Shown: piece by piece, positions 21,704 through 63,935 of the stretch | Numbering within the stretch: the stretch's first letter is position 1 | How the letters are laid out: each line of letters begins with the position of its first letter | NCBI GenBank assembly: GCA_050947035.1 | Contig: JBMNVW010000001.1 | Location: forward strand, 48,967-112,966 | Length of the DNA stretch: 64,000 nucleotides | Reading direction: 5' to 3' | From: Patescibacteria group bacterium | GTDB taxonomy: Bacteria; Patescibacteriota; Microgenomatia; 0-14-0-10-38-17 | Made by a program: the position numbers and the translations under genes | The notes under the pieces: generated by a model | What the model was told of the DNA's origin: nothing | The model's input: only the letters and a program-made list of their open reading frames with translations | Databases searched by the model: none

Positions 21704-21831
21704 TCAAGATCGTATTTATCTTTCCTCTTTCTTTCTTAGACTTTTACTTTTCTTCCGACTAACAATAATAGCAAATAATTAAAACCTTATTTAGCTAAAG
21801 ACCAAGGACAAAAGACCAAAGACCAAAGTCT

Positions 21832-21860
21832 TTGACAATCCCTCAAAAAATGCCTATACT
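21832..21860 (+). promoter_or_regulatory. Sigma-70-type promoter (TTGACA-N17-TATACT) for the pilN/pilO-like operon
   Basis: Exact -35 TTGACA (21832..21837), a 17-nt spacer, and -10 TATACT (21855..21860), 25 nt upstream of the 21885 ATG. Confidence 0.65.
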
Positions 21861-37300: not shown

Positions 37301-37375
37301 GGCCCAAGCAGAAAAAGCCCCAAAAAACAACCCGCCCAAAAAAATTGATAAAAACAATAAGAATTTTCTAGTCAT
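34301..37375 (-). CDS. Large secreted Cys/Gly/Ser/Thr-rich protein (1024 aa; hypothetical adhesin/toxin-like)
   Basis: Signal peptide (FGAFSAWA|QSP), then more than 60 Cys in CxxC/CC-rich modules (CGNGICE, CSTPNCPGNKPEDICC), a Pro/Thr linker and a long C-terminal beta-rich region. Codon composition is visibly more GC-rich than neighbouring genes. Confidence 0.5.
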   Translation of the reverse strand: MTRKFLLFLSIFLGGLFFGAFSAWAQSPYCGNGICEIEDYVYCSPPSDCYVGSSCSTPNCPGNKPEDICCLPNADCPEGWDTWDYAYDAQCKVTRVDDLGFECSWEWQYRDCSAADRCEGSSNVAYACDGDPSGSNDTGKILAGWCSTSCVTGCANGGWYKTCCQVSGVVQSGAQLTGNRTSCTNGGGCSSGARVWGTSCDGCLGSVDAYGTWTVGPCGGVPTTAPTSAPGDPTPTTGSCAVGAQWCTNPDQCAASGCTVADTPYGACAIEGDICCSCPSSQEEAARIKVNIVGTEHEVGEPVTIQVYQEPANTDTPNDDCYYASIEVKVNNPGGIVLPPDYVVCEAGGFKDESVDNGCSWGGDEGRCRTCIWNTNNVQAAPDDRAYELPVRQYPAGPYTAGVYYGGHSDPVCKDESADASDDTTLWGESEIYFTASQTCSYGGECVPLDLTSGDYIDYGIWTDNEWVSNFDWGGFLRVWRTEYGDPKSTGSSWTCYLRGSDSCPDGCAGIEGYNASNFLGTSNDDNDDYSVSLDIQNLDSDREYLVSVYGYGVNAHAPGFDCESQTRPFMKLESGSLSTVDYMIVDKECDWQEKTMRIVPQDGTITATLTSKGTKHGCGGYLQQSAFENFSICECPEPISPPTAPSLSQPPDGAQIRIDDVSLVWTHDGAWGVNSAGNNNSFEVFVNEVPSGTPEFSALGSYQTVDENTSSVGLDVSYDTRYCWGVRADNGALTADSEVWCFETLSPVGWFQGQSGNVYGHNGVSSLVSSSVSDWARYFSLDSGDFGSSAIIASPQGTAKEFGDALAATKSNPDNDDWLVEADLSRLADRYTYNYFASLLDLNQANEEIVWVEGGEGDAVVNAINGNPSKEVFVYQEPGGDGTLLFTDSADFSGRKVIVLFDGDVEVSLEDGEQLAPADFFALIASGSINFTGNTGDTSGVYIGTASALGVFVAGDQITTSVSSSRFIGRGIFFARNGFSLGRDLGSNNETLSAEFFRFDPKYFFTAPKVFRYSPQIWQELAP

Positions 37376-37933: not shown

Positions 37934-39907
37934 TTACTCATTATCCAAACTAAAAACGGGGGCATCATCAATCATCAAAATTCGATTTACGGAAAAATCA
38001 ATTGGACCCCTTAGACTACCGCCGGTAATAATAATTTGATTATCACTAGATACAGACGGATGAGATAAATAAGAATTATCAATATTAGCAAAAATAAGTT
38101 CATCAAAATTAACTTTCCGGCCAAAATTATCCATCGTTACCTTTTCCGCCGAAACGAAAGTAAACCCCAAGGAATAATTAATTCCCTTCTGAGAATCAGC
38201 CAAGAGATTTTCCGGAATCCATAAACCAACAGAATCGCGTGTTTGATGAAAAAATCTTTTAGCAAGAACCGCCTCAATAAACGGAGACCTAAACTCCACC
38301 CTATTAGGCAAATTAGCAATCCCGATAGAATTAACAGTTATTTTAATATGCCTTATCGTTATTCCTTCTCCTTTCGGATCAAAGGGGAAAGTCATTCGCC
38401 ACTCACCTCTCTCGATCGCCTCTGGCGTATTGGCCTGCTCTAACAATCTTCTCCTTACTTCACCAGCCAAAACCAAACCTTGTCCGGAGGAAACACTAGT
38501 CTCATCATCAAATTCAAATAAATACCCGGCATATTCGCCCTCTTTCATATTGTAAGGATTACCAGATTCAGCTCGATAAATTATTTTATCTCCCTCCTCA
38601 AAGGCCGATAAGCCCTCGATAATTGGTGCCCGGTTTAACAAATCCTCCGCGCTAGAACCTCCCATCTCCTCCCACCCCCACGCCTCTTTCTCCTGATCAT
38701 AACTGGCCTTAAAGGTAATTTCTTTGCCTTCCTCGTTTTGGCCGGTAAAGATGAATTGATTATCCTCTCTTTCCAACTGGTATCTATCTTGGACTCCTTG
38801 AGGATAGGGCAAGATAGGATTTTTAATCTGCTCCCCATCAAGCTGGTCAACAAAGGTTAAACCAGCCGCTCGGTAAAGATCAGAAGACAAATCCTGACCA
38901 ACAAGCTTATTTAACTGCCAAATTGTTTTTTGATCAGTATCCGGATCAACAAAAGAAACGGCTCTTTGGACAGGATCATAATCATAACCATTGCCCTCCA
39001 AGAGGTTGGCTAATGTTAGGGCTTGTTTGTTGTCCGGATCAGCCGGGAAGTGAGTAGGAAGAAGGGCCAAATAGTGGCGGGGAGCGCCGCTATCTTCATC
39101 GGCCCGATTATAATCGGTGAAAGCTGTTAAAGCATAAACCAGCTCTGAGCCTTCTTTTCCCTGGTCAATAACCAGCTTGCCTTCTCTATCTTGCTCGAGA
39201 TAGCCCAAAACAGTCATTTGAGTGTCTCTTAAAAGCTCTAACCCTTGAGGAAAAGTCCACTCTGAATAATCTTCTCCAGAAGGATCTTTTGAGGGTAAAT
39301 TTTCAAGCTCCAATCTTAATAGAGTCAGGGGTTTTTCCTGGCCTTCTTTGTCTTCAACCAAACCGGGAAAGGCAATTGTTTCTCCTTCCTTGCCCGGGCA
39401 AAAGAAACCAAGTCGACCCTGATAAGCCCCCAAAGAAACTAGATATTTTAATGAGGTAATAGAATCTTCTGATAAAGAGGCAAAATCAATTTCCTCACCC
39501 CAAGATCGTCTAACATAGTCTTGGCCAAACTGGGCAAAGGAGACCTCTTTCCCTCCATTGTCAATTGTTTCTCCCCCGCCGATACCGGTAAAAGCATTTT
39601 GTAAATATTCCCGGTCAATATCAACCCCCTCCAGTAATTTGGCCTCCGGGGTGGGGGTCACTTCCGGAGTAGGAATGCCGGTGGGTTCTTCGGTAGCTGT
39701 GGGTAATGAGGTAGGCGAGACTTCTTTAGTAGGGGTTTTGCTGGGTTGATCGGTGGGGCTTTTTTCCGGTTGAGAAGAAGGGGTTTCTGGCTGACAACCA
39801 GAACCAACCAAAGCGCTAGCTCCCAAGGCTAAGGCGCCTTTCAAAAACTGCCTTCGAGTAAAGCCTTTCTTTTCTTTAGTCGGCTGGTTCTCTTTCCTGT
39901 TAGCCAT
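37934..39907 (-). CDS. Tat-signal lipoprotein (657 aa, hypothetical extracytoplasmic protein)
   Basis: N-terminus KGFTRRQFLKGALALGASALVGSGC has a twin-arginine motif (T-R-R-Q-F-L-K) followed by a lipobox-like LVGSGC, then a Pro/Thr/Glu-rich linker. Confidence 0.5.
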   Translation of the reverse strand: MANRKENQPTKEKKGFTRRQFLKGALALGASALVGSGCQPETPSSQPEKSPTDQPSKTPTKEVSPTSLPTATEEPTGIPTPEVTPTPEAKLLEGVDIDREYLQNAFTGIGGGETIDNGGKEVSFAQFGQDYVRRSWGEEIDFASLSEDSITSLKYLVSLGAYQGRLGFFCPGKEGETIAFPGLVEDKEGQEKPLTLLRLELENLPSKDPSGEDYSEWTFPQGLELLRDTQMTVLGYLEQDREGKLVIDQGKEGSELVYALTAFTDYNRADEDSGAPRHYLALLPTHFPADPDNKQALTLANLLEGNGYDYDPVQRAVSFVDPDTDQKTIWQLNKLVGQDLSSDLYRAAGLTFVDQLDGEQIKNPILPYPQGVQDRYQLEREDNQFIFTGQNEEGKEITFKASYDQEKEAWGWEEMGGSSAEDLLNRAPIIEGLSAFEEGDKIIYRAESGNPYNMKEGEYAGYLFEFDDETSVSSGQGLVLAGEVRRRLLEQANTPEAIERGEWRMTFPFDPKGEGITIRHIKITVNSIGIANLPNRVEFRSPFIEAVLAKRFFHQTRDSVGLWIPENLLADSQKGINYSLGFTFVSAEKVTMDNFGRKVNFDELIFANIDNSYLSHPSVSSDNQIIITGGSLRGPIDFSVNRILMIDDAPVFSLDNE

Positions 39908-50752: not shown

Positions 50753-51637
50753 TTAAAATAAGTTCATCTGCTGGTCTTTTTTCTCTAAATCGGCCAAAAG
50801 AGAACGAAAACCCAAAAAAGAAAAAGCCAACCTTAGTTGTTCGGTATCAACCCTATCCAGCCGATATTCTTCTAAATTAATTTTAATCGGTACTTGGCAA
50901 TCAATTTTAGCTAAATCAGCCGATAAAAAAACATCATCTTTATAATCAACCAATTTTTCCCTTACCGCTGGTGAGTCAACCTTATCAAGATCATTATAAA
51001 TTGCTTTTATCGTTCCAAAATGATTTAACAGCTTGGCTCCGGTTTTGGGACCAATGCCCAGAGCGCCGGGATAATTGTCGGAATTATCACCCACCAACCC
51101 CTTATAATCAACCACTTGATCAGGCCTAACGTCTAAATCTTTCTTTACCTGAGATGGCCCAACAATTTGACCAGTGGATAGACCATTCTTAGGTAAAAAC
51201 AAACTAACCCGATCATTAACCAATTGCATTAAATCTTTGTCACCGGTAACAATTAAAACCGGCAATTTCTTGCTTACCTTTTTGGCAACCGTCCCGATAA
51301 CATCATCAGCTTCAAAACCCTCTTTTTGCTTGTTGGCAATTTTGGCTCGGTTAAGAATCTCCCCCACTAAAATAATTTGATCAACCAGCTTTTTGTCAGC
51401 TTTTGGTCGTTTGGCCTGGTAACCAACAAATTTTTCATGACGAAAGTTGGGTCCCGGAGCATCAAGGGCCACTAAAAAATATTTCGGAGAAAAATTGTCC
51501 CAAAGACGAAAAAGCATTTTAAAAAACCCATAAACCGCTCCTGTCGGCTGACCATCAGGAGAAGTTAGAGCGGGCAGGGCGTGAAAGGCTCGATGCAAAA
51601 CGGCGTGGCCGTCAACAATAATAAACTTTTTATTCAT
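50753..51637 (-). CDS. Stand-alone 5'-3' exonuclease (Pol I N-terminal/FEN-like)
   Basis: FIIVDGHAVLHRAFHALP... and EADDVIGT motifs. The start is reset to Met17 (51637) because the longer ORF would overlap ftsH by 56 nt. Confidence 0.8.
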   Translation of the reverse strand: MNKKFIIVDGHAVLHRAFHALPALTSPDGQPTGAVYGFFKMLFRLWDNFSPKYFLVALDAPGPNFRHEKFVGYQAKRPKADKKLVDQIILVGEILNRAKIANKQKEGFEADDVIGTVAKKVSKKLPVLIVTGDKDLMQLVNDRVSLFLPKNGLSTGQIVGPSQVKKDLDVRPDQVVDYKGLVGDNSDNYPGALGIGPKTGAKLLNHFGTIKAIYNDLDKVDSPAVREKLVDYKDDVFLSADLAKIDCQVPIKINLEEYRLDRVDTEQLRLAFSFLGFRSLLADLEKKDQQMNLF

Positions 51638-53504
51638 TGGCGTTTTTCTTTTTGCCAACCACCTTTTCAAATTCAGTTTGATCAAGAGTTTCTTTGGCTA
51701 ATAATTCTTTGGCTAATTTTGCCAAAACTTGCTTGTCTCCTTTTAATAATTTTTTGGCTTGCTGATAAGCCCGGTTAATAATTGTCTCTATTTCTTTATC
51801 AATTCTGGCTTTCATTTTGGCCGAAACAGGATCAATTATTGACCATTCACCTTCTTCGCCTTGGCTATCCCAAGTAACCGGACCCAAAGAGCCCATACCA
51901 AAATCAACCACCATTTTCCGCGCCAATTGATTGGCTTTTTTAATATCATCAGTGGCCCCAGTAGTCATTTCTGAAAAAATTAACTCTTCAGCCGCTCGTC
52001 CCCCCAACAAAACTGATATCCTTTCCATTAGTCGGCTTTTTGTCTCTTGGGTCCGATCTTGAACCGGCGAAATCATCGTGTGGCCCAAAGTAAGGCCTCG
52101 GGCTACAATTGAGACTCGCCCAATCGGATCAACATTGGGCAAAAGATGAGCAATTAAGGCATGGCCCGACTCGTGATAAGCGGCAATTTCGCGTTCTTTT
52201 TTACTCTGCAATCTTTTTCTTTGTGGACCCAGTTTAACTTTGGTAGCCGCTTCTTGCAAATCCTCCATTTCGATTGATTTTTTATTCCCCCTAGCCGCTA
52301 AAATTGCCGCTTCATTGAGCATGTTTTCTAAATCAGCACCAGAAAAGCCCACCGTTTGCTTGGCAATTCTGTCCCAATCAACCGACTTAGCAAATGGTTT
52401 GCCTTGAGCATGAATTTTCAAAATTGCTCCTCGCCCCTGAATATCAGGCATATCCAAAACCACTCGCCGATCAAAACGACCCGGACGAAGTAGAGCCGAA
52501 TCTAAAAGATCGGGCCGATTGGAAGCCCCAATGACAATCACATTATCATTAGGCGAAAAGCCGTCCATCTCCACCAACATCTGATTTAGAGTTTGTTCCC
52601 TTTCGTCATGGCCACTACTGACGGTGCGGGATCGGGACCGACCAATGCTTTCAATTTCGTCAATAAAAATAATGGCGGGGGCGTTTTTCTTGGCCGTTTC
52701 AAACAAATCGCGCATTCTGGCCGAACCAACTCCAACCAACATCTCCATAAATTCTGAACCGGCCATAGAATAAAAAGGAACACTGGCTTCTCCGGCTACC
52801 GCCCGGGCCAACAGGGTCTTTCCTGTTCCTGGCGGCCCAACTAAAAGAACCCCCTTGGGGGTTCTGGCTCCCAGGCGCCGATATTTGGCCGGATTTTTTA
52901 AAAAATCAACTACTTCTTCTAGTTCTCTTTTAGCCTCATCAACACCAGCCACATCACCAAAAGTGGCATCCTGCTTACCTTTAAAAAACTGTTTTGCTTT
53001 CGACTTCCCAAAAGAAAAAATTGAATTTTGCGCTCCTTTAGCCTGTTTAAAGGTGTAGTAAAAAAAGCCGCCAATCAAAACCAGGGGAACAATAGTAAGA
53101 AGAACATCAATCCAAACCTGAGAAAGGGTTTCGTCTTTTACCTTAATCTCCAGGCTTGAAGGATCAACTCCTTCTTGCTGTAAGATACTAACCAAGCTTT
53201 CGCCTGATTCTTTTCTGGTTGTTACCAAAGACTCATCCTGATAATAAAGACTAATTTGGTTGCCGGAAATTTCCGCTTCTTCAACTTTTTCATTCTTAAT
53301 ATCAGACAGAGCCTGAGAAAAAGGAATTTCTTCCGGTGAAACAGTAAAGCTCGCCAAAGCTCCCAAAAGCCAAAAAATTAAAAATATAGCTAATATCCAA
53401 GTAAAAATCTTCTTAAGATTAATTTTTATCTCCACCTTTTTAAATTTTTTTTGAGAAAATTTTGAAATCGGGGTCTTTTTTTTCTCTTTTTTAGCCATGG
53501 ACAT
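51630..53504 (-). CDS. ftsH: ATP-dependent zinc metalloprotease FtsH
   Basis: 624 aa; two N-terminal TM helices, AAA module ([18 protein letters not shown]), HESGHAL zinc site. Confidence 0.97.
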
Positions 53505-53636: not shown

Positions 53637-53677
53637 TCTTTTAATAGCCGCCCTTTATGCTATAATATTTTTTGACG

Positions 53678-53747
53678 TGCGGGGTAGTGTACGGTGGCAC
53701 GTGAGGCTCATAATCTCACAGATCAGGTTCAACTCCTGACCCCGCAA
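53678..53747 (+). tRNA. tRNA with CAT anticodon (Met elongator or Ile2-lysidine type; not initiator-like)
   Basis: Acceptor TGCGGGG/CCCCGCA, short D-arm, anticodon stem TGAGG/TCTCA with loop CTCATAA (CAT), T-arm TCAGG-TTCAACT-CCTGA, discriminator A, no encoded CCA. A TATAAT -10 lies at 53661..53666. Confidence 0.7.
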
Positions 53748-53781
53748 CACTAGTCTTTAGTCGTTAGTCATTGGTCGTTGG
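53728..53781 (+). repeat. 54-bp perfect direct repeat, copy 1 (3' 20 nt of tRNA-CAT plus 34 nt of flank)
   Basis: TTCAACTCCTGACCCCGCAACACTAGTCTTTAGTCGTTAGTCATTGGTCGTTGG. Confidence 0.9.
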
Positions 53782-53933
53782 CAATTTGAAAAGTAAATAA
53801 TTAAGGCCTATTTAAGGCTTAGGGGCTCAGGTGGTGAACCTGATAAAGGATTCCTAAATTAACGCGGCACCTTAACTAACAGTCGTGGTGTTATTACACC
53901 AACCAGCGAGGAAAGAAAAAGGAGCGTGTCGTC

Positions 53934-53987
53934 TTCAACTCCTGACCCCGCAACACTAGTCTTTAGTCGTTAGTCATTGGTCGTTGG
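53934..53987 (+). repeat. 54-bp perfect direct repeat, copy 2 (not associated with a complete tRNA)
   Basis: Identical 54-mer 206 bp downstream of copy 1; the upstream context cannot form the tRNA 5' half. Confidence 0.9.
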
Positions 53988-54014
53988 TTCCTGATACTTT
54001 TTCTCTTTCCGAAA

Positions 54015-54383
54015 ATGTATAAATTCGAAAAATTAAGGGTTTGGCAATCGGCGATGGATTTGGTAGTTGAAGTTTACAAATTCACAAAACAGCTACCCAA
54101 AGAGGAAACTTATGGCCTAAGAGACCAAATAAGAAGAGCAAGCGTTTCTATTGCTTTAAACATTGCCGAAGGGACGGGAGATAAAAGCGACAAAGAATTA
54201 ATAAGATATCTTTATTTATCTAAAAAGTCTCTTTTTGAAACAATAACCGGATTAAAGCTTACTCAAAGAATTTATCAACTAAAGCCAGAACAAATTTTAA
54301 AAAATTGCGATAACCTTGGTAGATCGCTTCAAGCTTTAATAAACTCTTTATCTAAAAGCCAAAAACTAAAGACTAACGACTAA
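54015..54383 (+). CDS. Four-helix-bundle protein (TIGR02436 / 23S rRNA intervening-sequence protein family; Avd-like)
   Basis: 122 aa, MYKFEKLRVWQSAMDLVVEVYKFTKQLPKEETYGLRDQIRRASVSIALNIAEGTG.... The family signature is unmistakable. Confidence 0.8.
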   Translation: MYKFEKLRVWQSAMDLVVEVYKFTKQLPKEETYGLRDQIRRASVSIALNIAEGTGDKSDKELIRYLYLSKKSLFETITGLKLTQRIYQLKPEQILKNCDNLGRSLQALINSLSKSQKLKTND

Positions 54384-54400
54384 AGACCAAGGACTAACCT

Positions 54401-54474
54401 GGCAGGGTAGCTCAGGTGGTTAGAGCAGGCGAATCATAACCGTCAGGTCGTCGGTTCAACTCCGACCCCTGCCA
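54401..54474 (+). tRNA. tRNA with CAT anticodon (second, distinct species)
   Basis: Acceptor GGCAGGG/CCCTGCC, D-arm GCTC-AGGTGGTTA-GAGC, anticodon stem GGCGA/CCGTC (A31.C39 mismatch) with loop ATCATAA, T-arm GTCGG-TTCAACT-CCGAC, discriminator A, followed by a T5 run. Confidence 0.7.
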
Positions 54475-54478
54475 CTTT

Positions 54479-54826
54479 TTAAAAAAATAATTCCCACCAC
54501 TGGCGCCAATTGGGGACTGGACTAATTTCTTGACTATCAGCCTCATTTTGCCAGAGAATATCTTGAGGTAAGATTAAAATTGTTTCATCTTTTGTCAATC
54601 CCAAACTATTACGCGCTTCTTGCTCCAAGAATTCATCGGTTTTAATATAATCAAGGTGGGCCCTAAGCTGTTCGTTTTTTTCTTGTAAGGCCTCTAGTTC
54701 TTGGTGTTCTTTTCTAACCACCAAGCCGCGACTAATAAGATTGACAGTATTAGTGCCCAAAGAAATAATAACAAAAATTAAAAATATCAATAGTAGAATC
54801 TTAAAGGTCTTCTTTATGGTTGACAT
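54479..54826 (-). CDS. Septum formation initiator (FtsB/DivIC-like) protein
   Basis: About 115 aa from the internal Met (MSTIKKTFKILLLIFLIFVII...): one TM, a coiled coil (EHQELEALQEKNEQLRAHLDYIKTDEFLEQEARNSLGL) and a C-terminal tail. Confidence 0.55.
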   Translation of the reverse strand: MSTIKKTFKILLLIFLIFVIISLGTNTVNLISRGLVVRKEHQELEALQEKNEQLRAHLDYIKTDEFLEQEARNSLGLTKDETILILPQDILWQNEADSQEISPVPNWRQWWELFF

Positions 54827-54950
54827 ATGGGCCGATCCAGTGTTATTATAAGCCATACTTGAGCTAAAACCTCTTCGCTTGAAAAATTTTCTTATTTTGT
54901 CAAGAAAAAGCCAAGAAAAAGCCAAGAAAAAAATTAAATCTTACTAAAAA

Positions 54951-55823
54951 ATGAACAGCAATCTTACTTCTTTTGACGGGGCCATAGACAAATTTTTAAC
55001 CCACCTAAAAAACGAAAATCGCTCCAGCAACACTATCATAGCATACGAAAACGACCTTAAGCAGTTGGCGGACTTTATCAGGCCCCAAAAAATTACCGAA
55101 ATCGATCAGGTCAAGACCGACCACATTAAAGCCTTTAAAAACCATCTTTTAGAAGAAAAAAAATACACCAACAAAACCGTTTCCCGCAAACTAAACTCAA
55201 TTAAATCTTTCTTCCGCTTCTTAACTAATTCTGCCGTTATTAAAAAAGACCCGGCCGACGATATTGCCCACCCAAAAATTAAACAAAAACTGCCCCGAAT
55301 TCTTTCTCCTCTAGAATACCGAGCCCTAAGAGATGTCTGCCGAGACGACTCCCGAAGTTATGCCATTATCGAGCTGATGCTTCAGGCCGGTTTACGAATT
55401 TCGGAAGTGGCCAATTTGGAAATAGCCGATATCCAAGAAGACAAAATCATCATCCGCCCTTACGAGTCTCACGATGGACGAGTAATCCCTCTTAACAAGG
55501 CCGCCAAAAGAGCGATTGAGGACTATTTGGAGGAACGACCCAAAACTAGAAAATCAAATAACTTGTTTATTACCAAAAACGGCAACCCTTTGTTAGTAAG
55601 AAACATTAGAAACAGCATTAACCGCTATTTTAAAATCGCCGAAATTACCGATGTTTATGTTAATAATTTGCGGGACACTTTTGTCGTCCAGCAATTAAAG
55701 GCCGGCGTTCCTTTAAATGTTGTCTCCCAAATTATCGGCCACAAACGAGTCTCCTCAACCGAAAAATACCTAGAACTAGTCGAAGAAAAAGAAACTGACA
55801 ACGTTAAGCTAAAAGAGCTCTAA
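54951..55823 (+). CDS. Tyrosine recombinase (XerC/XerD-like / phage-integrase family)
   Basis: 290 aa; N-terminal core-binding domain, C-terminal catalytic domain with R...HxxR...Y (IGHKRVSSTEKYLEL). Confidence 0.75.
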   Translation: MNSNLTSFDGAIDKFLTHLKNENRSSNTIIAYENDLKQLADFIRPQKITEIDQVKTDHIKAFKNHLLEEKKYTNKTVSRKLNSIKSFFRFLTNSAVIKKDPADDIAHPKIKQKLPRILSPLEYRALRDVCRDDSRSYAIIELMLQAGLRISEVANLEIADIQEDKIIIRPYESHDGRVIPLNKAAKRAIEDYLEERPKTRKSNNLFITKNGNPLLVRNIRNSINRYFKIAEITDVYVNNLRDTFVVQQLKAGVPLNVVSQIIGHKRVSSTEKYLELVEEKETDNVKLKEL

Positions 55824-56564
55824 AGATATCCCTACCGGGCAATGATCAGAACCCAAAATTTTGGGTAAAATAAAAGCCTTCTTAACCTCTTTTTTTAAGT
55901 CTTGGCTGACAAAACAATAATCTATTCGCCAACCAACATTCCTTTCCCTTGCCCGGGCAAAATAAGCCCAAAAAGAATAATTGTTTCCCTCTTTATTAAA
56001 CATTCTAAAAGTATCTACAAAACCCAAATCCAAAAGTTGGTCAATCTTTTTCCTTTCTTCCGGAGTGAAACCAGTATTGTTTTTGTTTTCTTGCGGCCTA
56101 GCCAAATCAATCGCTTTATGGGCAATGTTAAAATCACCAATCAAAATCAGCCTTTTTTTATTTTTAATATAATCAAAAAGTTTATCGTAAGTTTTAAGTT
56201 TATAAGCCATGTCCTGTTTTTGCCGGCCGCCGTTGGGTAAATATAAATTCATTATATTAAAGTCGGCAAATTCTAATTCTATTAACCGGCCCTCATTATC
56301 AAAACGATCAAGGCCTAAGCTTTTGTTTGTTGGCTTTGGCTCTTTTTTAGAATAAACGGCTGTACCGCTATAGCCGGGCCTTTGGGCCGGATTTAGAATT
56401 AATTGATAACCGGCAACCTCAAGAAGATCAGTCGGCAATTGCTCTCTTTTGGCTTTAATTTCTTGAAGGCCGATAATATCGGGGTCAATCTTTTTTAAGC
56501 TAGCAAGAAAGTTTTTTCGATAAACTGCCCTTAGGCCATTGATGTTCCAAGAAACAATTTTCAT
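55809..56564 (-). CDS. xth: Exodeoxyribonuclease III
   Basis: The conserved start MKIVSWNINGLRAV is at 56564 (the track ORF extends further 5'). The EEP-nuclease motifs continue through to SDHCPV. Confidence 0.9.
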   Translation of the reverse strand: MKIVSWNINGLRAVYRKNFLASLKKIDPDIIGLQEIKAKREQLPTDLLEVAGYQLILNPAQRPGYSGTAVYSKKEPKPTNKSLGLDRFDNEGRLIELEFADFNIMNLYLPNGGRQKQDMAYKLKTYDKLFDYIKNKKRLILIGDFNIAHKAIDLARPQENKNNTGFTPEERKKIDQLLDLGFVDTFRMFNKEGNNYSFWAYFARARERNVGWRIDYCFVSQDLKKEVKKAFILPKILGSDHCPVGISLELF

Positions 56565-56648
56565 ATCACCAAAAACAAACAACTGAATTGTCCAAAGTAA
56601 ATAAACCAATGGAGGATGGTAAGGACGAAACGAACACAATACCCCCAG

Positions 56649-56723
56649 TGGGTCAGGGTGGATTCGAACCACCGAACCTCGATTTTATAAGAATCGCGCT
56701 CTTACCAACTGAGCTACTGACCC
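56649..56723 (-). tRNA. tRNA-Ile (TAT anticodon, AUA-reading)
   Basis: Minus-strand sequence GGGTCAG-TA-GCTC-AGTTGGTAA-GAGC-G-CGATT-CTTATAA-AATCG-...-GGTGG-TTCGAAT-CCACC-CTGACCC-A. The anticodon loop has U33, TAT at 34-36 and A37. Confidence 0.65.
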
Positions 56724-56763
56724 AAAAGACTGGCTTTCCCCATATTATACCCGAAAAAGGGGA

Positions 56764-59106
56764 TTATAATTTAGCTCGTCGGGTAATCTGCGCCTCAATT
56801 ACCGCTTTGTCCTTGCCATACTTTAGTCGAGACAGCTCAATAATATTCTTAGCCAGCTCCGGTTTCTCTAAAACCTTCTCCTTAGTCATATCCTTAGTCA
56901 AATCAAGAGAGAATGGCGGCACCGGTTCATTATTAACAATTGTTTTAACATAGGCGTTAAACCTCTCGATATTAAGAAGATCGTTTTCAGAAAAATCGGG
57001 CTGGAACTCATGTTGAAGGTAGGAGGCATCGGCTACCCCCACCCGAAAAGAAATCAAGCTCCCCACATTGCCAAAAACAGCGTTTTTAACTTCTTCTTCC
57101 ATCTGACCAATAAACTGATTGGCCACTGCCAAATTAAGATGATATTTTCTGGCTTCGGATAAAATCTGGGCAAAGTCTGGAGTAGCAAAATTTTGGAACT
57201 CATCAACATAAAGATAAAAATCGCGCCTTTTCTCTTCGGGAATATCCTGTCGGCTCATGGCGGCAATTAAAATCTTGGGTACCAAAACCAAACCCAAAAA
57301 GCTTGAGTTTTCTTCGCCAATCTTGCCTTTAGCCAAATTAATTAAAAGAATTTTCCCCTCATCCATTACTTTTCTAAAATCAAAAGATGATTGAGATTGA
57401 CCGATAATGTTGCGCATCATACTATCAGTAACAAAACGGCCAAATTTGGAAACAATATAATCCAAAACTTCGCTTTTATGAAAGTCTGATGTTTGAGCAA
57501 TCTGATCGGTCCAATAACGTTTAACCATTGGGTCCTTAATTTTAGGCAGTAACTCTTGAACATAGGAAACATCGGTTAGGACCCGAACCACCTCAACAAA
57601 AGTCGCTCCCGGTTCCGACATTACCGTTAACATCGCATTCCTAATAGCATGCTCAAAACGGGGACCAATAATACCGGTTTTATAAGGATCATAAAGCTTG
57701 TACATCAAATTAATAATTGAAGAAACAACAAAGTTTTTTTGCTCCTCAGTATAAGCCTCCAGTAAATTAAGACCCATGGGGCGAGCAGTATCGGAAGGGT
57801 CAAAATAAATTACATCTTCGGCCCGATCGGCAGGAATTCTAGGCAGAATTTTTTCAATCGTATCGTGGGGATCAATAAAACAAACTCCTTTGCCTTCTTC
57901 AATATCCTGGACAATCATCTGTTTTAATAGCTCGGACTTACCGGTGCCAGTTTTACCAATAATATAAAGGTGGCGACGACGATCGTCATCAGATAAACAA
58001 ACCGGACGAACCTCACCCCGATGAACGCTTTTGCCTAAATAAAGACCGGTTTTGGGCACTTCCGACGGCACTGGGGCTCGTTTGGCATTAAGCCAAGCAA
58101 TATTGGGCGTTTCAACAGTCTTGTTAGGAAGATGAAATATCGTCGCCAATTCGGCTGAATTAAGAATAATCTTTTTTCTATTCCATGGCCAAAGCGGCCA
58201 ATATCGATAAATAAAATTAATCATAAAAGCTCGCTTCCACCAAACTTTTTTACTGCTCAGGCCATTTTGGTCAGAATTAAATTGAGAAAGAGCGCTTTTG
58301 ATTGATGACAAATGCGCCTTGGCTTGATCGGTAGTTTTAGAACAAACCACTACCCGCAATTCCACCTCAAAACCGGGCTTAGCACACTTTTCTTCTATTT
58401 TTTCCAAAGTCTTACTATCCATCTTAAACTCGGCCTCTTCAGGATCAGCCTCTTTCTTTTTGGTCGAAGATAAAAACGACTTACCAATTTTTTGCCACTT
58501 ATTTCCTGCTGGCGATATTAAAATTTGGATAGCCACTCCTTCACCTTCAGCTAATTTAGATAAGGTTGAGGTTAAAGAAGAAAGGGGATCAACCGAAAAA
58601 TCCTGATAGGTTTTAATTGGATAAAAGGGTGAGTTTTTGAATTCGAAGGTTTTATAAACGACTTTGCCTTTTTGGGAGAAAATATTATACTCATCAATCC
58701 GTTTAATTACCGCATTCGGATAAAGACCATAAATTTGTCTCTCTAAAAGATTAACTTTTCCCTGAGGAATGGCAAAATAAAAACGAATGCTGTCCGGAGT
58801 ACCGACAATTTCGGCACTAAAGAAAAATTTCGGCTTTAAAAAAGAAAATTTACCGCCAGCTTTTAAAGAGTGTAGGTTAGTAAACAGTTGTTCGGCGGCG
58901 TCAATTTTAATTTCATTATCTCGAGGCAAAATTACTTGCAGTAAGACCAAATCAAGAGAGTGTTTTTCCCGATTTCTTTCCCGCCAAAGCAAAAACAAAA
59001 AATAAAACAAAAAACCCAAAAGGGCAAGACAAAAAAAACCCACTACCAACAAGATAATAGAACGGGCTAGAAAATAAAATAAATCATTTAAATTATAAAT
59101 CGTCAT
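56764..59106 (-). CDS. VirD4/TraG/TraD-like type IV coupling protein family membrane ATPase (FtsK-HerA superfamily)
   Basis: 780 aa; N-terminal TM helix, Walker A IIGKTGTGKSE, Walker B LYVDEFQNF. Translationally coupled to the upstream small ORF (ATGA overlap). Confidence 0.55.
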   Translation of the reverse strand: MTIYNLNDLFYFLARSIILLVVGFFCLALLGFLFYFLFLLWRERNREKHSLDLVLLQVILPRDNEIKIDAAEQLFTNLHSLKAGGKFSFLKPKFFFSAEIVGTPDSIRFYFAIPQGKVNLLERQIYGLYPNAVIKRIDEYNIFSQKGKVVYKTFEFKNSPFYPIKTYQDFSVDPLSSLTSTLSKLAEGEGVAIQILISPAGNKWQKIGKSFLSSTKKKEADPEEAEFKMDSKTLEKIEEKCAKPGFEVELRVVVCSKTTDQAKAHLSSIKSALSQFNSDQNGLSSKKVWWKRAFMINFIYRYWPLWPWNRKKIILNSAELATIFHLPNKTVETPNIAWLNAKRAPVPSEVPKTGLYLGKSVHRGEVRPVCLSDDDRRRHLYIIGKTGTGKSELLKQMIVQDIEEGKGVCFIDPHDTIEKILPRIPADRAEDVIYFDPSDTARPMGLNLLEAYTEEQKNFVVSSIINLMYKLYDPYKTGIIGPRFEHAIRNAMLTVMSEPGATFVEVVRVLTDVSYVQELLPKIKDPMVKRYWTDQIAQTSDFHKSEVLDYIVSKFGRFVTDSMMRNIIGQSQSSFDFRKVMDEGKILLINLAKGKIGEENSSFLGLVLVPKILIAAMSRQDIPEEKRRDFYLYVDEFQNFATPDFAQILSEARKYHLNLAVANQFIGQMEEEVKNAVFGNVGSLISFRVGVADASYLQHEFQPDFSENDLLNIERFNAYVKTIVNNEPVPPFSLDLTKDMTKEKVLEKPELAKNIIELSRLKYGKDKAVIEAQITRRAKL

Positions 59107-59441
59107 GACTGCTCCTTAAAGCCAACTTGGGCGCCAAAAATTTTAACCAATCTTTTCGACCATTCGGCCAACCAACGCCAAGAATCTTCTATTTTAGTTC
59201 TTAAGCCCTGTTCATATTCTTCTAGGCTTAAGGGCAAAACAACCTTAGGGTCTTGAGCCTTAGAAGAGGTTACTAAAGTCTGGCCGGTTTGGTCGTCTTG
59301 AATCGGCTGAATTAAATCATGCTCAGCTTTTTTTACTTCTTCAATATGACCGGCCATTTCCGGAGGAATACCCGAGGGTTTTATTTCTATAATCGGATAT
59401 TGATCAAGAGGAGCTAGTCGTTCTTTTTTGGCCGCTGACAT
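59103..59441 (-). CDS. Hypothetical small protein coupled to the T4CP-like ATPase
   Basis: 112 aa; its stop overlaps the start of the 56764..59106 gene. Confidence 0.3.
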   Translation of the reverse strand: MSAAKKERLAPLDQYPIIEIKPSGIPPEMAGHIEEVKKAEHDLIQPIQDDQTGQTLVTSSKAQDPKVVLPLSLEEYEQGLRTKIEDSWRWLAEWSKRLVKIFGAQVGFKEQS

Positions 59442-60241: not shown

Positions 60242-60401
60242 CTCAAACCTTATATTCTTTTCTATCACTGTATTCGGAAGACTTGCCGTTATTCCATTGA
60301 TTAACCGGACGTAAATAACCGACAACACGAGAATAAACTTCGCAAGGAGTACGATCGGCGTTTGTTACTTTTTTGGCAGATTTTTTTGCTTTTTTGTTCA
60401 T
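60242..60401 (-). CDS. Separately encoded NrdD C-terminal glycyl-radical tail (mini-ORF with its own SD; needs a +1 shift at 60300-60302 to read the conserved WNNGK segment)
   Basis: ATG at 60401 is preceded by AAAGGGGGTGA. It encodes MNKKAKKSAKKVTNADRTPCEVYSRVVGYLRPV; frame 0 stops at 60288, whereas the +1 frame continues NQWNNGKSSEYSDRKEYKV* to 60242. Together these match the NrdD C-terminus (compare E. coli RRVCGYLGSPDARPFNAGKQEEVKRR). Confidence 0.6.
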
Positions 60402-60623: not shown

Positions 60624-63600
60624 TTACTTTTCCTGGTACCCTATTTCTTCATCGCACTTAGGACAAAATTGCCATTCACCCTTAAGGTAGCCATGAATTG
60701 GACAAATCGAAAAAGTAGGCGTAATCGAAAAATAGGGAAGCTTATAATTTTGAGAAACTTTTTTTATTAAGTTCTTAACGCTTTCGGTATCCGGCAGGCT
60801 TTCTCCTAAAAAACCATGTAAAACTGTATTATGAACAAACACCAGACAGTCCTTGCCAGCCAAATAATTATGGTTTTTCTTGGTCATCAAGTCATAGAAC
60901 AATTTGTTTTCTTTGGGCTTCAGCTTGGTTGTTCTCTTAACCCGCACCACCGGCAGTTGTCTTTTGGTTCGCCGTGATAATTGATTATTTATTCTTGAAA
61001 AATTAAAAGTATTTGTTAATCTATCGCTTATTCTCGTCATCTCATAAGCCGGAATTTTCAATCGCCAGATGTTTTTTTCATTTTTTCTCTTGGTCGGTTT
61101 TTCACTCTTGCTAATTAATATCCCGGCCAGAGTAAATATTTCTAATAAGTCGTCCGTTAATTTAGGGGAAACCGTATAATATTCAAAACTCCCGTCCCGC
61201 CTGGACAAATGTCCGTCACTATCCATTAATCCCGATAAAAATGAAAAAATATTATCGTTGCCAATTATATCTTTTACTTTCTTGGGCACCCCAACACTAT
61301 AAACCTTGCTGCCCGGCAAAAAACCCTTTTTTAGAAAAAAATCTACCGCTTCTTTCTTTGAGGTACTAACCTCCAGCAACCGATCGGATCTTTTGTCATT
61401 TTTTATAACATTAACCATACAGCCAAAATTGTCATTTAAAACTTGGGCAACTTTATTCATCGCCTCTTGATGTTCACTAAAAAACCTCAGTTTATATTTT
61501 TTAAGCTTATTACCGCCCCGATTGTCAATAAATTCTGACAGACAACCATCGCCAATATAAAAACCAATTAACCACATCAATTGATTTTCTAGCTCTCCCT
61601 TATTCGGTAAAATATTATTATTATTTTGTAAAATATAGTCTCCTTTTTTAAGTTCATCGGCCCGCCTGGTAACTACCTGATACTTGGATAGCTGGTGGTA
61701 TTTTTTTCGACAATCAGGATGATAACGCAAATGGGCGGCAAAAGCTTTAACATTTATAACCGGCTGATCACAAATCGGACATTTTTTAGCAACCCGTCTT
61801 TTTTTCATGACAAAAAATGGATGCCAATCAGAAGTAACAATATCAAGACCTCGCTCTCCTTCTATTCTTACTTTCCTCTTGCGCTCAACGTCAATTTCAA
61901 CCGCCTCCAACACTTCGTCCCACTCCGAAACCTCTTTCCCGGAATGATAACTTACCACCCGCAAAGGGCGCAATTTATTAAATTTCTCTACAATCTCCTC
62001 TATGGGCATCAACCCCTTATCGGTTAAAACTTTATTGCCTTCTTCGATACAACCTCCCGTATACTTACACTGCAACTTATCTTGCAAGTCTAGAGCTTCA
62101 AAAATATCCGTCGTATAATCAACTGGTAAATGTGAAGAATTGGTGTAATAAGGGGAGGCGCCATTTTCCTGATAATTCTTTTCGTTGGCACAAATTATTT
62201 TAGGAAATTGTTCTTTATCAAGGCGAGCAAAACGATAGGCAGTACTCTCGGCGGGGGTAGCTTCCAAATTAAACATTTCGCCTGTTTCTTGTTGATAAGC
62301 CAATAGTTTTCCTCTCATATAATCCATTATCTCAAGAGCAAAGGCTTGTCCTTCGGGATCGGCAATATTTTTACCTAAAAAATTAACCATCGCTTCATTC
62401 ATACCGTTTAAGCCGATCGTATTAAAATGGTTGCGCCAATAAACTTTGTTGCGCTTTTTTATGTCTTGTAAATAATGACGACAATAGGGGTAAAGCCCTT
62501 TTTCGGTAAATTCTTCTACGGTTTCTCTTTTGATCATCAAAGAATCTTTAGCCAAATCCATTAAGTGCCCAAGAAGAGTAAAAAACTTTCTTTTAGCAAA
62601 CCCTGGTGTCTTGGAATTAGTCTTAGCCAAATAACCAATTCGAGGTAAATTAATGGTTACCACCCCCAAAGAGCCAGTTAAGGGGTTAGCAGAAAAAAGA
62701 CCACCTCTTCGGCGCAATTCCCGATTATCCAAACGAAGTCGGCAGCACATACTCCGGGCATCATCTGGGTCCATATCAGAATTAACAAAATTAGAAAAGT
62801 AAGGAATACCGTATTTTCTAGTCATCTCCCAAACCGGCTCTAAGTTTTTATTATCCCAATCAAAATCTTTGGTAATTGAATAGGTGGGGATTGGGAAAGT
62901 AAAGACTCGGCCTTGAGCATCACCTTCCATCATATTTTCGGCAAAAGACCGATTGATCATGTCCATCTCTTTTTGGAAATCCTTATACTTGTCTTTCGTT
63001 GGCTTTCCGCCGATAATAACCATCTCTTCTCCCACCATCTTGGTTGGGTGAATATCTAGGGAAATATTAGAAAAAGGGGTTTGAAATCCGACCCGAGTAG
63101 GAACGTTCATATTAAAAACAAATTCCTGAAGGGCTTGCTTAGTCTGCTTATAAGTCAGACCATCATAGCGAACAAACGGGGCCAGGTAAGTATCAAAATT
63201 GGAAATGGCTACCGCCCCGGCCACTTCCCCCTGAATGGTATACATAAAATTAACAATTTGGCCCAAGGCGGAAGAAAAATGCTTGGGGGGGGCGCTATTA
63301 ACCTTACCGGAAACACCACCAAAACCCTTAGCCAAAAAATCTTTTAAATCCCAACCGGTACAATAAGCCGAAAGAGAAGACAGGTCATGAATATGAAGAT
63401 CACCCTGGCGATGAGCTTTTCTTATTTCCCGAGAATAAATTTTATTAAGCCAAAAGTTAGCCGAAATAATGCTAGCCACATGGTTATTTAAGCCCTGCAA
63501 AGAATAAGTCATGTTGGCATTTTCCTTCACTCGCCAATCACCTTGATTTAAATATTTTTCCGTTAGCTCATCAGCATCCACCAAACTACTAACACTTCTT

Positions 63601-63935
63601 AATTTATGGTGAAGTTGACGATAAAGGGTATAGGCGTTATGAACCTCGTCGTGGGAATGTTTAAGCAAGGTTTGCTCGACAATATCCTGAACTTGTTCGA
63701 CTTCGGGAACAATCGAAGAATTAAAGCGCTTTTCTAGTTCTGAAATCACCTCTTTGGCTAATCGACGAACCTCTTGGGCATCATCTTTACCGGCGGCTTT
63801 AAAAGCAGACTTAATCGCCCGGGCAATTTTGCTTGGGCTAAAGGCAACTACTCGACCGTTTCTTTTTTTTATCTTGGCAATTTTTGATTTTATTGCTTTT
63901 CTGGCCATCAATAACACCCTAAAAACCCTCTTCAA
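60624..63935 (-). CDS. nrdD: Anaerobic ribonucleoside-triphosphate reductase (class III) with ATP-cone, containing an intein; ORF ends just after the zinc ribbon, before the glycyl-radical motif
   Basis: 1103-aa ORF. ATP-cone N-terminus (KIKKRNGRVVAFSPSKIARAI), NrdD core, KYTGG|[intein]|TVLHGFLGE, and a C-terminal CPIHG...CPKC zinc ribbon, then stop. The likely start is Met10 (63908). Confidence 0.9.
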   Translation of the reverse strand: MKRVFRVLLMARKAIKSKIAKIKKRNGRVVAFSPSKIARAIKSAFKAAGKDDAQEVRRLAKEVISELEKRFNSSIVPEVEQVQDIVEQTLLKHSHDEVHNAYTLYRQLHHKLRSVSSLVDADELTEKYLNQGDWRVKENANMTYSLQGLNNHVASIISANFWLNKIYSREIRKAHRQGDLHIHDLSSLSAYCTGWDLKDFLAKGFGGVSGKVNSAPPKHFSSALGQIVNFMYTIQGEVAGAVAISNFDTYLAPFVRYDGLTYKQTKQALQEFVFNMNVPTRVGFQTPFSNISLDIHPTKMVGEEMVIIGGKPTKDKYKDFQKEMDMINRSFAENMMEGDAQGRVFTFPIPTYSITKDFDWDNKNLEPVWEMTRKYGIPYFSNFVNSDMDPDDARSMCCRLRLDNRELRRRGGLFSANPLTGSLGVVTINLPRIGYLAKTNSKTPGFAKRKFFTLLGHLMDLAKDSLMIKRETVEEFTEKGLYPYCRHYLQDIKKRNKVYWRNHFNTIGLNGMNEAMVNFLGKNIADPEGQAFALEIMDYMRGKLLAYQQETGEMFNLEATPAESTAYRFARLDKEQFPKIICANEKNYQENGASPYYTNSSHLPVDYTTDIFEALDLQDKLQCKYTGGCIEEGNKVLTDKGLMPIEEIVEKFNKLRPLRVVSYHSGKEVSEWDEVLEAVEIDVERKRKVRIEGERGLDIVTSDWHPFFVMKKRRVAKKCPICDQPVINVKAFAAHLRYHPDCRKKYHQLSKYQVVTRRADELKKGDYILQNNNNILPNKGELENQLMWLIGFYIGDGCLSEFIDNRGGNKLKKYKLRFFSEHQEAMNKVAQVLNDNFGCMVNVIKNDKRSDRLLEVSTSKKEAVDFFLKKGFLPGSKVYSVGVPKKVKDIIGNDNIFSFLSGLMDSDGHLSRRDGSFEYYTVSPKLTDDLLEIFTLAGILISKSEKPTKRKNEKNIWRLKIPAYEMTRISDRLTNTFNFSRINNQLSRRTKRQLPVVRVKRTTKLKPKENKLFYDLMTKKNHNYLAGKDCLVFVHNTVLHGFLGESLPDTESVKNLIKKVSQNYKLPYFSITPTFSICPIHGYLKGEWQFCPKCDEEIGYQEK
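60828..62051 (-). mobile_element. Intein (408 aa) with LAGLIDADG homing-endonuclease domain inserted in NrdD after KYTGG
   Basis: Begins with Cys (CIEEGNKVL) and ends VFVHN followed by the +1 Thr; LAGLIDADG blocks LIGFYIGDGCL and FLSGLMDSDGHL; internal CPICD...HPDC zinc knuckle. Removing it restores the conserved NrdD motif KYTGGTVLHGFLGE. Confidence 0.85.

Follow-up and report, generated by a model that had tools for sequence, protein, structure and literature searches.

Intervening sequences (IVSs) and the S23p or intervening-sequence proteins (IVPs) associated with them have been known for decades, to our knowledge without any known function, and have been treated as a peculiarity of rRNA. 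Free-standing homing endonuclease genes sit in tRNA gene clusters, as is the case for segB of phage T4, and integrases that target tRNA genes classically leave the tRNA 3' end directly repeated. The IVS in the 23S rRNA of Coxiella has been described as a selfish element with an S23p open reading frame (ORF) and three or four tandem heptamers directly 5' of the start codon, and it is cleaved by RNase III at the first repeat (PMC4990558). In bacteria of the candidate phyla radiation (CPR), insertions in the 16S and 23S rRNA genes carry IVP, LAGLIDADG and GIY-YIG ORFs (Tsurumaki et al. 2024, PMC11270868). Here we describe a putative cassette of the IVS type that lies between two tRNA genes with a CAT anticodon (tRNA1 and tRNA2) in a 64-kb stretch of DNA from a Patescibacteria group bacterium (the window), within a focal block at positions 53678-59441 (Table 1). 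An initial annotation of this block had proposed a decayed or rearranged integrative element, or a hotspot of site-specific recombination at tRNA genes. Taken as a whole, the 6-kb region is probably best explained as a conserved chromosomal neighbourhood of Candidatus Shapirobacteria that carries an IVS-type cassette, and not as an integrated element.

Loci and contigs of related genomes used for comparison are designated by L-numbers (L001 etc.). One genome per species was scanned with the 5' half of tRNA1, which gave 110 species loci, most of them titled Shapirobacteria or Patescibacteria; gene order in these loci was read by tblastn and ARAGORN. In the window, tRNAs were called with ARAGORN and Rfam (50-64 kb, E <= 1) and gene families with Pfam and NCBIfam.

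The IVP cassette between tRNA1 and tRNA2

The ORF between tRNA1 and tRNA2 was assigned to the intervening-sequence protein family by PF05635 (E 5.2e-32, 110.7 bits, cut-off 33.8) and TIGR02436 (112 bits). The initial label "Avd-like" holds in so far as this four-helix-bundle family is related to Avd, but the Avd models themselves stayed below their cut-offs (NF033474, 21 bits, cut-off 80; PF22296, 17 bits, cut-off 40), and a check of IVP as an accessory of a diversity-generating retroelement found no reverse transcriptase among the scanned window ORFs (39 ORFs of ~170 aa or more, searched with Pfam). Rfam detected three tRNAs in the 50-64 kb region and nothing else, that is no rRNA, no family for the spacer and no intron ribozyme. 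Comparison of the window IVP with five homologues gave ratios of non-synonymous to synonymous substitution rates (dN/dS) of 0.05-0.11; IVP is under strong purifying selection, which argues that the protein is functional. A frameshifted copy was found in the L012/L141 lineage.

The gene is bracketed by two arrays of heptamers in inverted orientation, the right one of which overlaps the end of the ORF. The two arms were predicted to pair at -41.7 kcal/mol (RNAduplex, z = -7.8), a value that none of 200 shuffles reached. Of the 12 loci tested in this way (13 arm pairings, the two left arms of the window both being counted), 11 gave a duplex unmatched by shuffles (z -3.2 to -8.5), and L143 was weaker with a z of -2.3. 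Inverted tandem heptamer arrays bracketed every IVP homologue whose context was examined, the arms of L142, L144/145, L147 and L148 being checked by repeat search only. The heptamers vary by lineage (TTAGTCN in the window, TTAGCNN in L146, TTCACGA/TTGACGT in L148, GGTTCGG in L130), but the two arrays of a locus are complementary in every case. Other tRNA genes can serve as neighbours: IVP is located between tRNA-Leu(CAG) and tRNA-Ser(GCT) in L124 and between tRNA-Val(TAC) and tRNA-Leu(TAA) in L146. In simple forms from Shapirobacteria (L137-L141, L012 and L009) the arrays come within a few nucleotides of the tRNA ends, and no duplication of a tRNA end is present.

Judged by these sequence features, we classify the window cassette as an IVS-type element that occupies a tRNA operon as a new host site; our literature search found nothing that places IVP genes in tRNA operons. 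Small selfish genes between tRNA genes that are inherited with the flanking markers, GIY-YIG genes included, link the locus to the segB type of phage T4, from which it differs in that IVP has no known nuclease activity, that the host replicon is a bacterial chromosome and that an RNA stem brackets the cassette. With the 23S rRNA IVSs of Coxiella burnetii (helix 45), Leptospira and others, it has in common a PF05635 ORF, stem-forming ends, upstream heptamers and a location in a stable-RNA precursor, and these IVSs are likewise regarded as selfish and horizontally acquired (PMC4990558). The window cassette, however, lies in the spacer of a tRNA operon and not in an rRNA helix, so that its excision would fragment no functional RNA; its ORF is under strong purifying selection, whereas that of Coxiella is decaying; and a recent exchange between species is demonstrable for it (see below). 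As in the rRNA insertions of CPR bacteria, whose hosts belong to the same phylum-level group, GIY-YIG and IVP families occur at the tRNA locus and are patchy among relatives (PMC11270868), but that survey covered rRNA genes only, while the insertion described here is intergenic between tRNAs and has no intron ribozyme.

No sigma-70-like site was predicted between tRNA1 and IVP, and the cassette, having no predicted promoter of its own, would be carried in the tRNA precursor, with transcription starting at the tRNA promoter. A candidate for this promoter is an extended -10 element close to tRNA1 (Table 1), of the form TGnTATAAT: a TATAAT-like box at an equal distance from tRNA1 is kept in L001, L135, L036, L010, L012 and L020. 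A simple sigma-70 scan did not call the box, as no -35 element is present. In the precursor, the heptamer arrays are computed to form an imperfect duplex of ~40 nt per arm, which would bring the 3' side of the upstream tRNA next to the 5' end of tRNA2. By analogy with the homologous 23S rRNA IVS of Coxiella, where cleavage has been shown experimentally, this duplex would be cut by RNase III, and the tRNAs would then be finished by RNase P and RNase Z. Co-transcription with the tRNAs followed by RNase III excision of the stem is the most likely mechanism on these grounds. IVP would also be made; that it binds the heptamer arrays is a guess.

Exchange of the cassette and variation of the spacer

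The flanking genes of the window and of L001, L002 and L103, which represent a species different from that of the window, share 72-80% DNA identity. The cassette of L001, in contrast, matches that of the window at 27/27 nt 5' of IVP, 341/341 nt of the IVP ORF, 45/45 nt of the right arm and 74/75 nt of tRNA2, and the identity is complete from just past the left arm to the T-loop of tRNA2. According to our own arithmetic, the chance of 341 unchanged sites at ~20% divergence is of the order of 1e-33. The same IVP allele is found in L004, yet with different flanks again. A conspecific strain, L135 (NPIE01000344.1), is 97.6% identical to the window over 5.4 kb but agrees with it at only 318/341 IVP positions (23 differences) and has a 13-nt indel beside the left arm; over the whole IVP ORF there are 25 substitutions, 19 of them synonymous, with a synonymous divergence (dS) of 0.30. 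The fact that the window IVP is identical to that of a foreign species and different from that of its own indicates that the cassette was recently exchanged between species. From the extent of the identity, one breakpoint would fall within the left heptamer arm and the other within or past the right arm and tRNA2. The cassette may spread by recombination in its conserved arms and the flanking tRNA sequences.

Identity of the IVP segment between species could in principle also reflect extreme purifying selection on the nucleotides, for example on RNA structure, and the position of the cassette in a structured precursor as well as the conservation of tRNA2 and of the arms are in line with this. 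We consider such selection very improbable as the source of the identity, given that the conspecific L135 differs at 23 of 341 IVP sites, mostly synonymously, and that dS against other homologues is 0.33 (L136) or as high as 1.5-2.3 (L137, L010 and L009). With L135 and other homologues diverging at synonymous positions, the IVP sequence is evidently free to change. A further contig, L005 (Logan SRR27676593, 924-2219), contains a tRNA1-IVP-tRNA2 module identical to that of L001, preceded by a mirrored Xer/DivIC pair that comes from a more distant species. Either the module has a genuine second context, or this short contig is a chimera whose parts were fused at the module they have in common, and L005 was not relied on.

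The spacer between tRNA1 and tRNA2 is highly variable among the 110 species loci, ranging from 4 nt to >2 kb and usually measuring 4-160 nt. At 69 loci tRNA2 is located downstream on the same strand, with a median spacer of 143 nt (39 of <=160 nt and 18 of >400 nt), while tRNA2 is inverted in seven loci and upstream in ten. Empty sites occur in L020, a close relative with the gene order of the window (64 nt), and in L025 from another clade (4 nt). Long spacers contain GIY-YIG genes of ~90 aa (L036, L050, L054 with two, L074 and L110; the assignment rests on a Pfam E of 1.5e-14 for the L036 ORF, the one tested) or genes for helix-turn-helix (HTH) proteins of ~229 aa (L021, L034 and L107, with broken copies in L069 and L099), and other spacer genes code for a Bro-N protein (L116), zinc-ribbon membrane proteins and IVP. 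The ~229-aa ORFs of L021, L034 and L107 had also been considered as LAGLIDADG endonucleases, a candidate that was rejected because Pfam recognises an N-terminal HTH only. Duplications of the tRNA1 3' end are present in L021 (two tandem units) and L095, and 5' fragments of tRNA2 in L048, L016, L074 and L105. On the basis of these sequences, the tRNA1-tRNA2 spacer appears to be a recurrent landing site for small selfish genes. The hotspot part of the initial annotation is thus borne out in the sense of a recombination and insertion hotspot at tRNA genes, where spacers of very different length hold differing genes, the tRNA genes of many species are inverted relative to each other and tRNA ends have been duplicated in independent lineages; the part that saw the remnant of an integrative element is not (see below).

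Two further observations concern rearrangements at tRNA genes. In L048, a tandem array of ~70-nt units, broken by assembly gaps, extends ~280-900 nt 3' of tRNA1, each unit corresponding to the 5' part of tRNA2, truncated and with ~30 nt inserted into its D-loop. Elsewhere in the window, an IS200/Y1-transposase-like ORF (14156-14818, minus strand; PF01797, E 4e-9) adjoins tRNA-Cys and a PEGA/SH3 gene, and the same tRNA-Cys/PEGA genes directly follow tRNA2 in L012, so that large rearrangements between species have breakpoints at tRNA genes.

The 54-nt repeat, Xer and the DUF8128 ATPase

tRNA1 is a probable initiator tRNA-fMet, as suggested by its acceptor stem (UGCGGGG/CCCCGCA), which we take to resemble the acceptor end of E. 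coli tRNA-fMet, and by the variable 1:72 position, where U, C or A stands opposite A72 among relatives. The perfect 54-bp duplication of a tRNA 3' end that had been reported for the block is present and consists of the last 21 nt of tRNA1 together with 33 nt that include four heptamers (Table 1). A search for additional copies, recommended at the time and run here on the 64-kb window, returned these two copies only (<=3 mismatches; 0 expected by chance), plus an orphan heptamer array at 21.8 kb. The orphan array comprises five heptamers of the IVP-arm type (AAAGACC-like, plus strand) at 21800-21835, just 3' of rpsT, with no IVP gene and no partner arm; a cassette may have been lost there, or the repeat may be used independently. 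An assembly artefact was rejected as the origin of the 54-nt repeat: the duplication is present in several assemblies made independently. Moreover, L003, a separate Logan contig from this genome, matches the window at 100% identity beginning with 53958, so that only the final 30 nt of copy 2 are included, as expected if a k=31 assembly (k being deduced) broke at a true repeat.

The second copy of the tRNA1 end closes a tRNA-fMet-derived element of ~135 nt, near the start of which an inverted and diverged copy of the T-arm/acceptor strand of tRNA1 (53822-53844) is complementary to the T-stem and the acceptor 3' strand of tRNA1. Elements of the same architecture, 124-136 nt in length, were found in L001, L010, L021 (two tandem copies) and L095. 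The duplicate always matches the local tRNA-fMet (CCTGA in the window, CCTGG in L010 and L095, CCTAG in L021), and the G-rich complementary strand is always 124-136 nt upstream of it. A duplication of the tRNA1 3' end is shared by L001, L004, L005, L006 and L136, with a spacing of 204 nt where measurable, a perfect 21-nt tRNA part and a heptamer part of ~86% identity; the spacing is 135 nt in L010, and in L036 the duplication adjoins the GIY-YIG gene. Its presence in L001, L004, L005, L006, L136 and L010 makes the duplication older than the window strain. The extension of the perfect repeat to 54 nt, in contrast, is strain-specific, since the second arm of L135 matches the first at 28/33 positions and shows no such extension. 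It is probably a gene-conversion tract linked to the cassette swap, during which the heptamer arm next to the tRNA-end copy would have been homogenised in the window strain alone. We conclude that the 54-nt repeat goes back to an earlier duplication, in which the last 21-23 nt of tRNA-fMet were copied and now close a non-coding, tRNA-derived element of ~135 nt, and that it is not the att site of an element carrying Xer. In L021 (3175-3502, two tandem units of ~163 nt) and L095 (1374-1498, one unit of ~125 nt), the units end in the last 16-20 nt of the local tRNA-fMet, followed by a hairpin and a T-run, with no IVP present, which suggests a small tRNA-fMet-derived element or small RNA that is independent of the cassette.

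The genes around the cassette form a recurring block among the 110 species loci, made up of the 112-aa ORF, the DUF8128 ATPase, Xer, DivIC, tRNA1(CAT), tRNA2(CAT) and tRNA-Ile(UAU). Xer adjoins tRNA1 in 88 of the 110 loci and the ATPase is present in 70, many of the loci without a match ending at a sequence edge before the position of the gene. Xer has the catalytic domain (PF00589, 93.6 bits) and the SAM-like N-domain (PF02899, 60.2 bits) of tyrosine recombinases, scores below the NCBIfam cut-offs for XerC (172.6, cut-off 335), XerD (172.1, cut-off 330) and XerA (167.4, cut-off 220), is 46-88% identical to its orthologues beside tRNA1 and is the only tyrosine recombinase detected in the window when Xer itself was used as tblastn query. 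The proposal that it is located beside its own dif site or the replication terminus found no support: GC skew is negative throughout the 64 kb, which argues against the terminus or the dif region lying in the window. Metagenome-assembled genomes (MAGs) of Candidatus Shapirobacteria have an IVP identical to that of the window among their annotated proteins.

The ATPase had been described as similar to type IV coupling proteins (T4CPs) such as VirD4 and TraG, and as possibly part of a dispersed type IV system. In its AlphaFold model (31 homologues, mean pLDDT 78.5), a long N-terminal helix (residues 3-42; hydrophobic segment 6-43) leads into a DUF8128 domain of the alpha/beta type, and the P-loop domain contains a helical insertion. 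A Foldseek search of the PDB with this model ranked TrwK/VirB4 first (E 4e-16), followed by HerA, Cag-beta, TrwB and DotL, supporting the predicted fold of an ATPase of the type IV secretion system (T4SS) class. At the level of family models, the profile searches that had been suggested for the 780-aa protein gave T4SS-DNA_transf and TrwB just above cut-off (PF02534, 22.5 bits, cut-off 20.1; PF10412, 21.6 bits, cut-off 20.5) and TraG-D_C just below it (PF12696, 21.7 bits, cut-off 22), while the NCBIfam TraD models scored 30-47 bits against cut-offs of >360. The fold part of the description is upheld by the model; membership in a coupling-protein family is borderline by these scores, and the best structural hits are VirB4/TrwK rather than T4CPs. 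Similarity to solved T4CPs is confined to ~50 residues around the Walker A motif (GKTGTGKS), which is nearly invariant with one variable position. The ATPase shares the N-terminal anchor and the P-loop fold class of TrwB, VirD4/Cag-beta, DotL and TrwK (Foldseek E 4e-16 to 1e-9), but unlike these it has an extra DUF8128 N-domain and adjoins xer-divIC instead of T4SS or relaxase genes. More than 7,000 homologues were found at E <= 1e-20, with 66-69% identity across Microgenomates, and this high conservation together with the constant xer-divIC neighbourhood leaves a coupling-protein role unsupported. No other T4SS gene and no relaxase gene was detected in the Pfam scans of the window ORFs of ~170 aa or more or in the neighbourhoods of relatives; the remaining large ORFs are ordinary CPR housekeeping genes. 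Among the homologues P0040-P0159, the ATPase is paired with a small acidic ORF and is almost always found beside xer and divIC; the name under which it is publicly annotated, type IV secretion DNA-binding protein, has no supporting context. The suggestion that it is an analogue of FtsK, based on the xer-divIC synteny, was not followed, as no FtsK was among the top 50 Foldseek hits, and is speculation. A literature search on DUF8128/PF26449 returned nothing.

Since the block recurs across species loci and the homologues of the ATPase are well conserved, comparative sequence data point to Xer and the ATPase as core chromosomal genes and not island cargo. The opposite reading, a decayed integrative or conjugative element in a tRNA gene with the 54-nt repeat as attL/attR, Xer as its integrase and the ATPase as a leftover of conjugation, can draw on the tRNA 3'-end repeat, which is also the direct duplication found around the DNA of tRNA-targeted islands, cis-mobilizable elements (CIMEs) and IMEX, on a tyrosine recombinase 1 kb from this repeat, on the T4SS-ATPase fold and on the recurrence of tRNA-end duplications at the locus in other species, with tandem units in L021 that recall tandem accretion. 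We nevertheless regard it as distinctly unlikely, because the repeat surrounds a mere 152 nt that contain no gene (115-185 nt of non-coding DNA when the other units are included) and no integrase, because Xer and the ATPase are outside the repeat and syntenic with the tRNA trio at the loci counted above, with the ATPase conserved across Microgenomates at the identity given, and because no relaxase, VirB4, VirB6 or other transfer gene was seen in the scanned window ORFs. Moreover, L020 keeps Xer in place next to an empty spacer (the locus ends before the position of the ATPase). Relatives share the gene order and the recombinase is chromosomal, which for the Xer/ATPase part is essentially what had been named beforehand as contradicting an integrative element, and for this block the reading is already largely refuted. 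What is left of it is a residual version in which a tyrosine recombinase acting in trans would move the unit of 135-206 nt, a non-autonomous mini-element of the integrative kind.

An explanation of another kind would be that the tRNA-fMet 3'-end copy and its complementary strand belong to an RNA with a function of its own, either a small RNA of ~125-135 nt or a signal that acts in cis. Such an RNA, of ~130 nt and ending in ...CCCCGCAAC(CA), would be a long hairpin that imitates, with its terminal helix and 3' tail, the acceptor/T-stem minihelix of the initiator tRNA. It could be a processing signal for RNase P, RNase Z or the CCA enzyme and so punctuate the mRNA downstream, or it could be a decoy for a protein specific to initiator tRNA. 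Architecture and size are common to five lineages with little similarity in the interior, the 3' copy tracks the local tRNA-fMet including lineage-specific T-stem changes, and differences in the 5' strand of L001 still pair through G:U. In addition, the unit occurs in L095 and L021 without the cassette gene and is followed there by a hairpin and T-run, the copy in L036 is followed by a terminator-like hairpin, and RNAalifold (3 sequences) predicts the closing helix. We still consider a functional RNA unlikely: folding energies are unremarkable (z -0.9 to -2.6), the terminal duplex reaches z -1.6 to -3.4 with 5' strands that showed no preference for their own 3' strand in a cross-lineage matrix, only five or six sequences are available, with no Rfam match, and the exact tRNA-end duplication was found in a handful of species loci only.

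Several points also weigh against our preferred picture of a conserved chromosomal neighbourhood with an IVS-type cassette that is excised from the tRNA precursor and has moved between species. Cleavage of the window stem by RNase III is proposed solely from analogy. A cut in the right arm, which contains the IVP stop codon, would give a non-stop mRNA, and the S23p protein of Coxiella is thought not to be made after excision (PMC4990558). As to the exchange, homologous recombination through arms of 30-45 nt and a tRNA of 75 nt is plausible from the sequences, and active, protein-mediated mobility of the cassette is a possible alternative route. There is also some chance of a chimeric MAG assembly across a 120-nt stretch that is identical between species, to which the agreement of L003 and several independent assemblies runs counter. 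Finally, the exact match of the duplicate to the local tRNA across lineages with different T-stems is hard to obtain by conversion of short tracts. It would fit copies that arose anew, time and again, from the local target, or else selection acting on an RNA.

The occurrence of the cassette, heptamer arrays included, between tRNA genes of several CPR lineages, together with the strong purifying selection on its protein and its recent move between species, provides the IVP family with a testable biology and allows it to be framed as a selfish cassette that exploits stable-RNA operons. More tentatively, IVP and the heptamer arrays might constitute a widespread and active selfish class in stable-RNA units, with the tRNA-fMet copy belonging to an undescribed initiator-mimicking element or small RNA of ~130 nt, a joint proposal that we put forward as a possibility rather than as a likely outcome. 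If true, IVP cassettes would colonise tRNA spacers and rRNA helices, be excised harmlessly by host RNA processing and move between species via portable arms, possibly with IVP binding to the heptamer arrays, and the ~130-nt element would be regenerated from, or co-evolve with, the local initiator tRNA. The apparent core status of a tyrosine recombinase and a "type IV secretion" ATPase beside tRNA genes of Shapirobacteria corrects a tempting misannotation, and that of the ATPase matters for claims on type IV systems in CPR bacteria.

Other features of the window

The three tRNA genes, the tyrosine recombinase, the four-helix-bundle gene, the ATPase, xth and the FtsB-like gene were all recovered in the positions first reported (Table 1), and the described coupling of the ATPase to a small ORF was seen as a 4-nt overlap.

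Table 1. Features of the tRNA block and its surroundings, in order of position in the window.
Feature	Position	Strand	Basis
FtsH	51630-53504	-	Pfam/NCBIfam
Candidate extended -10 element TGCTATAAT of the tRNA operon, 11 nt 5' of tRNA1	53658-53666	+	Read from the sequence; putative
tRNA1, tRNA-CAT, probable initiator tRNA-fMet	53678-53748	+	ARAGORN; Rfam, 52.3 bits
Direct repeat, copy 1: last 21 nt of tRNA1 and 33 nt with four heptamers (GTCNTTR)	53728-53781	+	Repeat search
tRNA-fMet-derived element, ~135 nt	53819-53954	+	Inverted repeat; ends in exact copy of the tRNA1 3' end (53934-53954)
Direct repeat, copy 2: 21-nt pseudo 3' end of tRNA1 and left heptamer arm of the IVP cassette	53934-53987	+	Repeat search
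Left arm of IVS-type stem, tandem heptamers GTCTTTA GTCGTTA GTCATTG GTCGTTG	53955-53997 (heptamers ~53959-53987)	+	Repeat search
IVP, 122-aa four-helix-bundle protein (23S rRNA intervening-sequence protein family, Avd-related)	54015-54383	+	PF05635, TIGR02436
Right arm, inverted heptamers, overlapping last IVP codons and stop codon	54348-54394 (array ~54359-54394)	+	Repeat search
tRNA2, tRNA-CAT (elongator Met or Ile2 type), T-run directly 3'	54401-54475	+	ARAGORN, Rfam
DivIC/FtsB-like septum protein, conserved neighbour outside the cassette	54479-54925	-	PF04977, 33.8 bits
Xer-like tyrosine recombinase	54951-55823	+	PF00589, PF02899
Exodeoxyribonuclease III (xth)	55809-56564	-	TIGR00633, 300.6 bits, cut-off 99
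tRNA-Ile(UAU) (gene anticodon TAT), third of the conserved tRNA trio	56648-56723	-	ARAGORN, Rfam
780-aa membrane-anchored ATPase, DUF8128 N-domain and VirB4/VirD4/HerA-class P-loop domain (predicted)	56764-59106	-	Pfam, NCBIfam, model, Foldseek
112-aa acidic ORF, stop overlaps ATPase start by 4 nt	59103-59441	-	Coordinates; conserved ATPase partner

The DivIC/FtsB-like protein has one hydrophobic stretch of the transmembrane type (Kyte-Doolittle) and is syntenic in relatives. For xth, the profile match starts at residue 37 of the listed ORF, placing the start near 56564. The 112-aa ORF had no Pfam or NCBIfam match, and homologues upstream of the ATPase were found in many species by tblastn. 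Three additional ORFs on the minus strand, 34301-37375, 37934-39907 and 16455-17948 (1024, 657 and 497 aa), had no Pfam match at E <= 1e-6.

Pfam/NCBIfam also identified NrdG in the window, as well as an NrdD that contains an intein. NrdD (60624-63935, minus strand, 1103 aa) has an intein with a LAGLIDADG endonuclease domain, which the 686-aa orthologue of L001 does not have; the intein is another selfish element, polymorphic for presence and absence, in the same 10 kb. The glycyl-radical tail of NrdD (RVVGYLRP) is encoded by a separate 52-aa ORF (60243-60401, minus strand), ~220 nt past the main NrdD stop. The tail is split off in the same way in L001 (49 aa), and Rfam gave no hit in the gap. 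The split may be a natural split gene or be due to an unrecognised intervening element.

The three tRNAs of the block score 52-69 bits in Rfam, where the gathering score is 29. Throughout Shapirobacteria (L014-L123), the two tRNA-CAT genes are constantly accompanied by tRNA-Ile(UAU), and in these bacteria AUA may be read by a UAU anticodon rather than by a lysidine-modified CAU tRNA.

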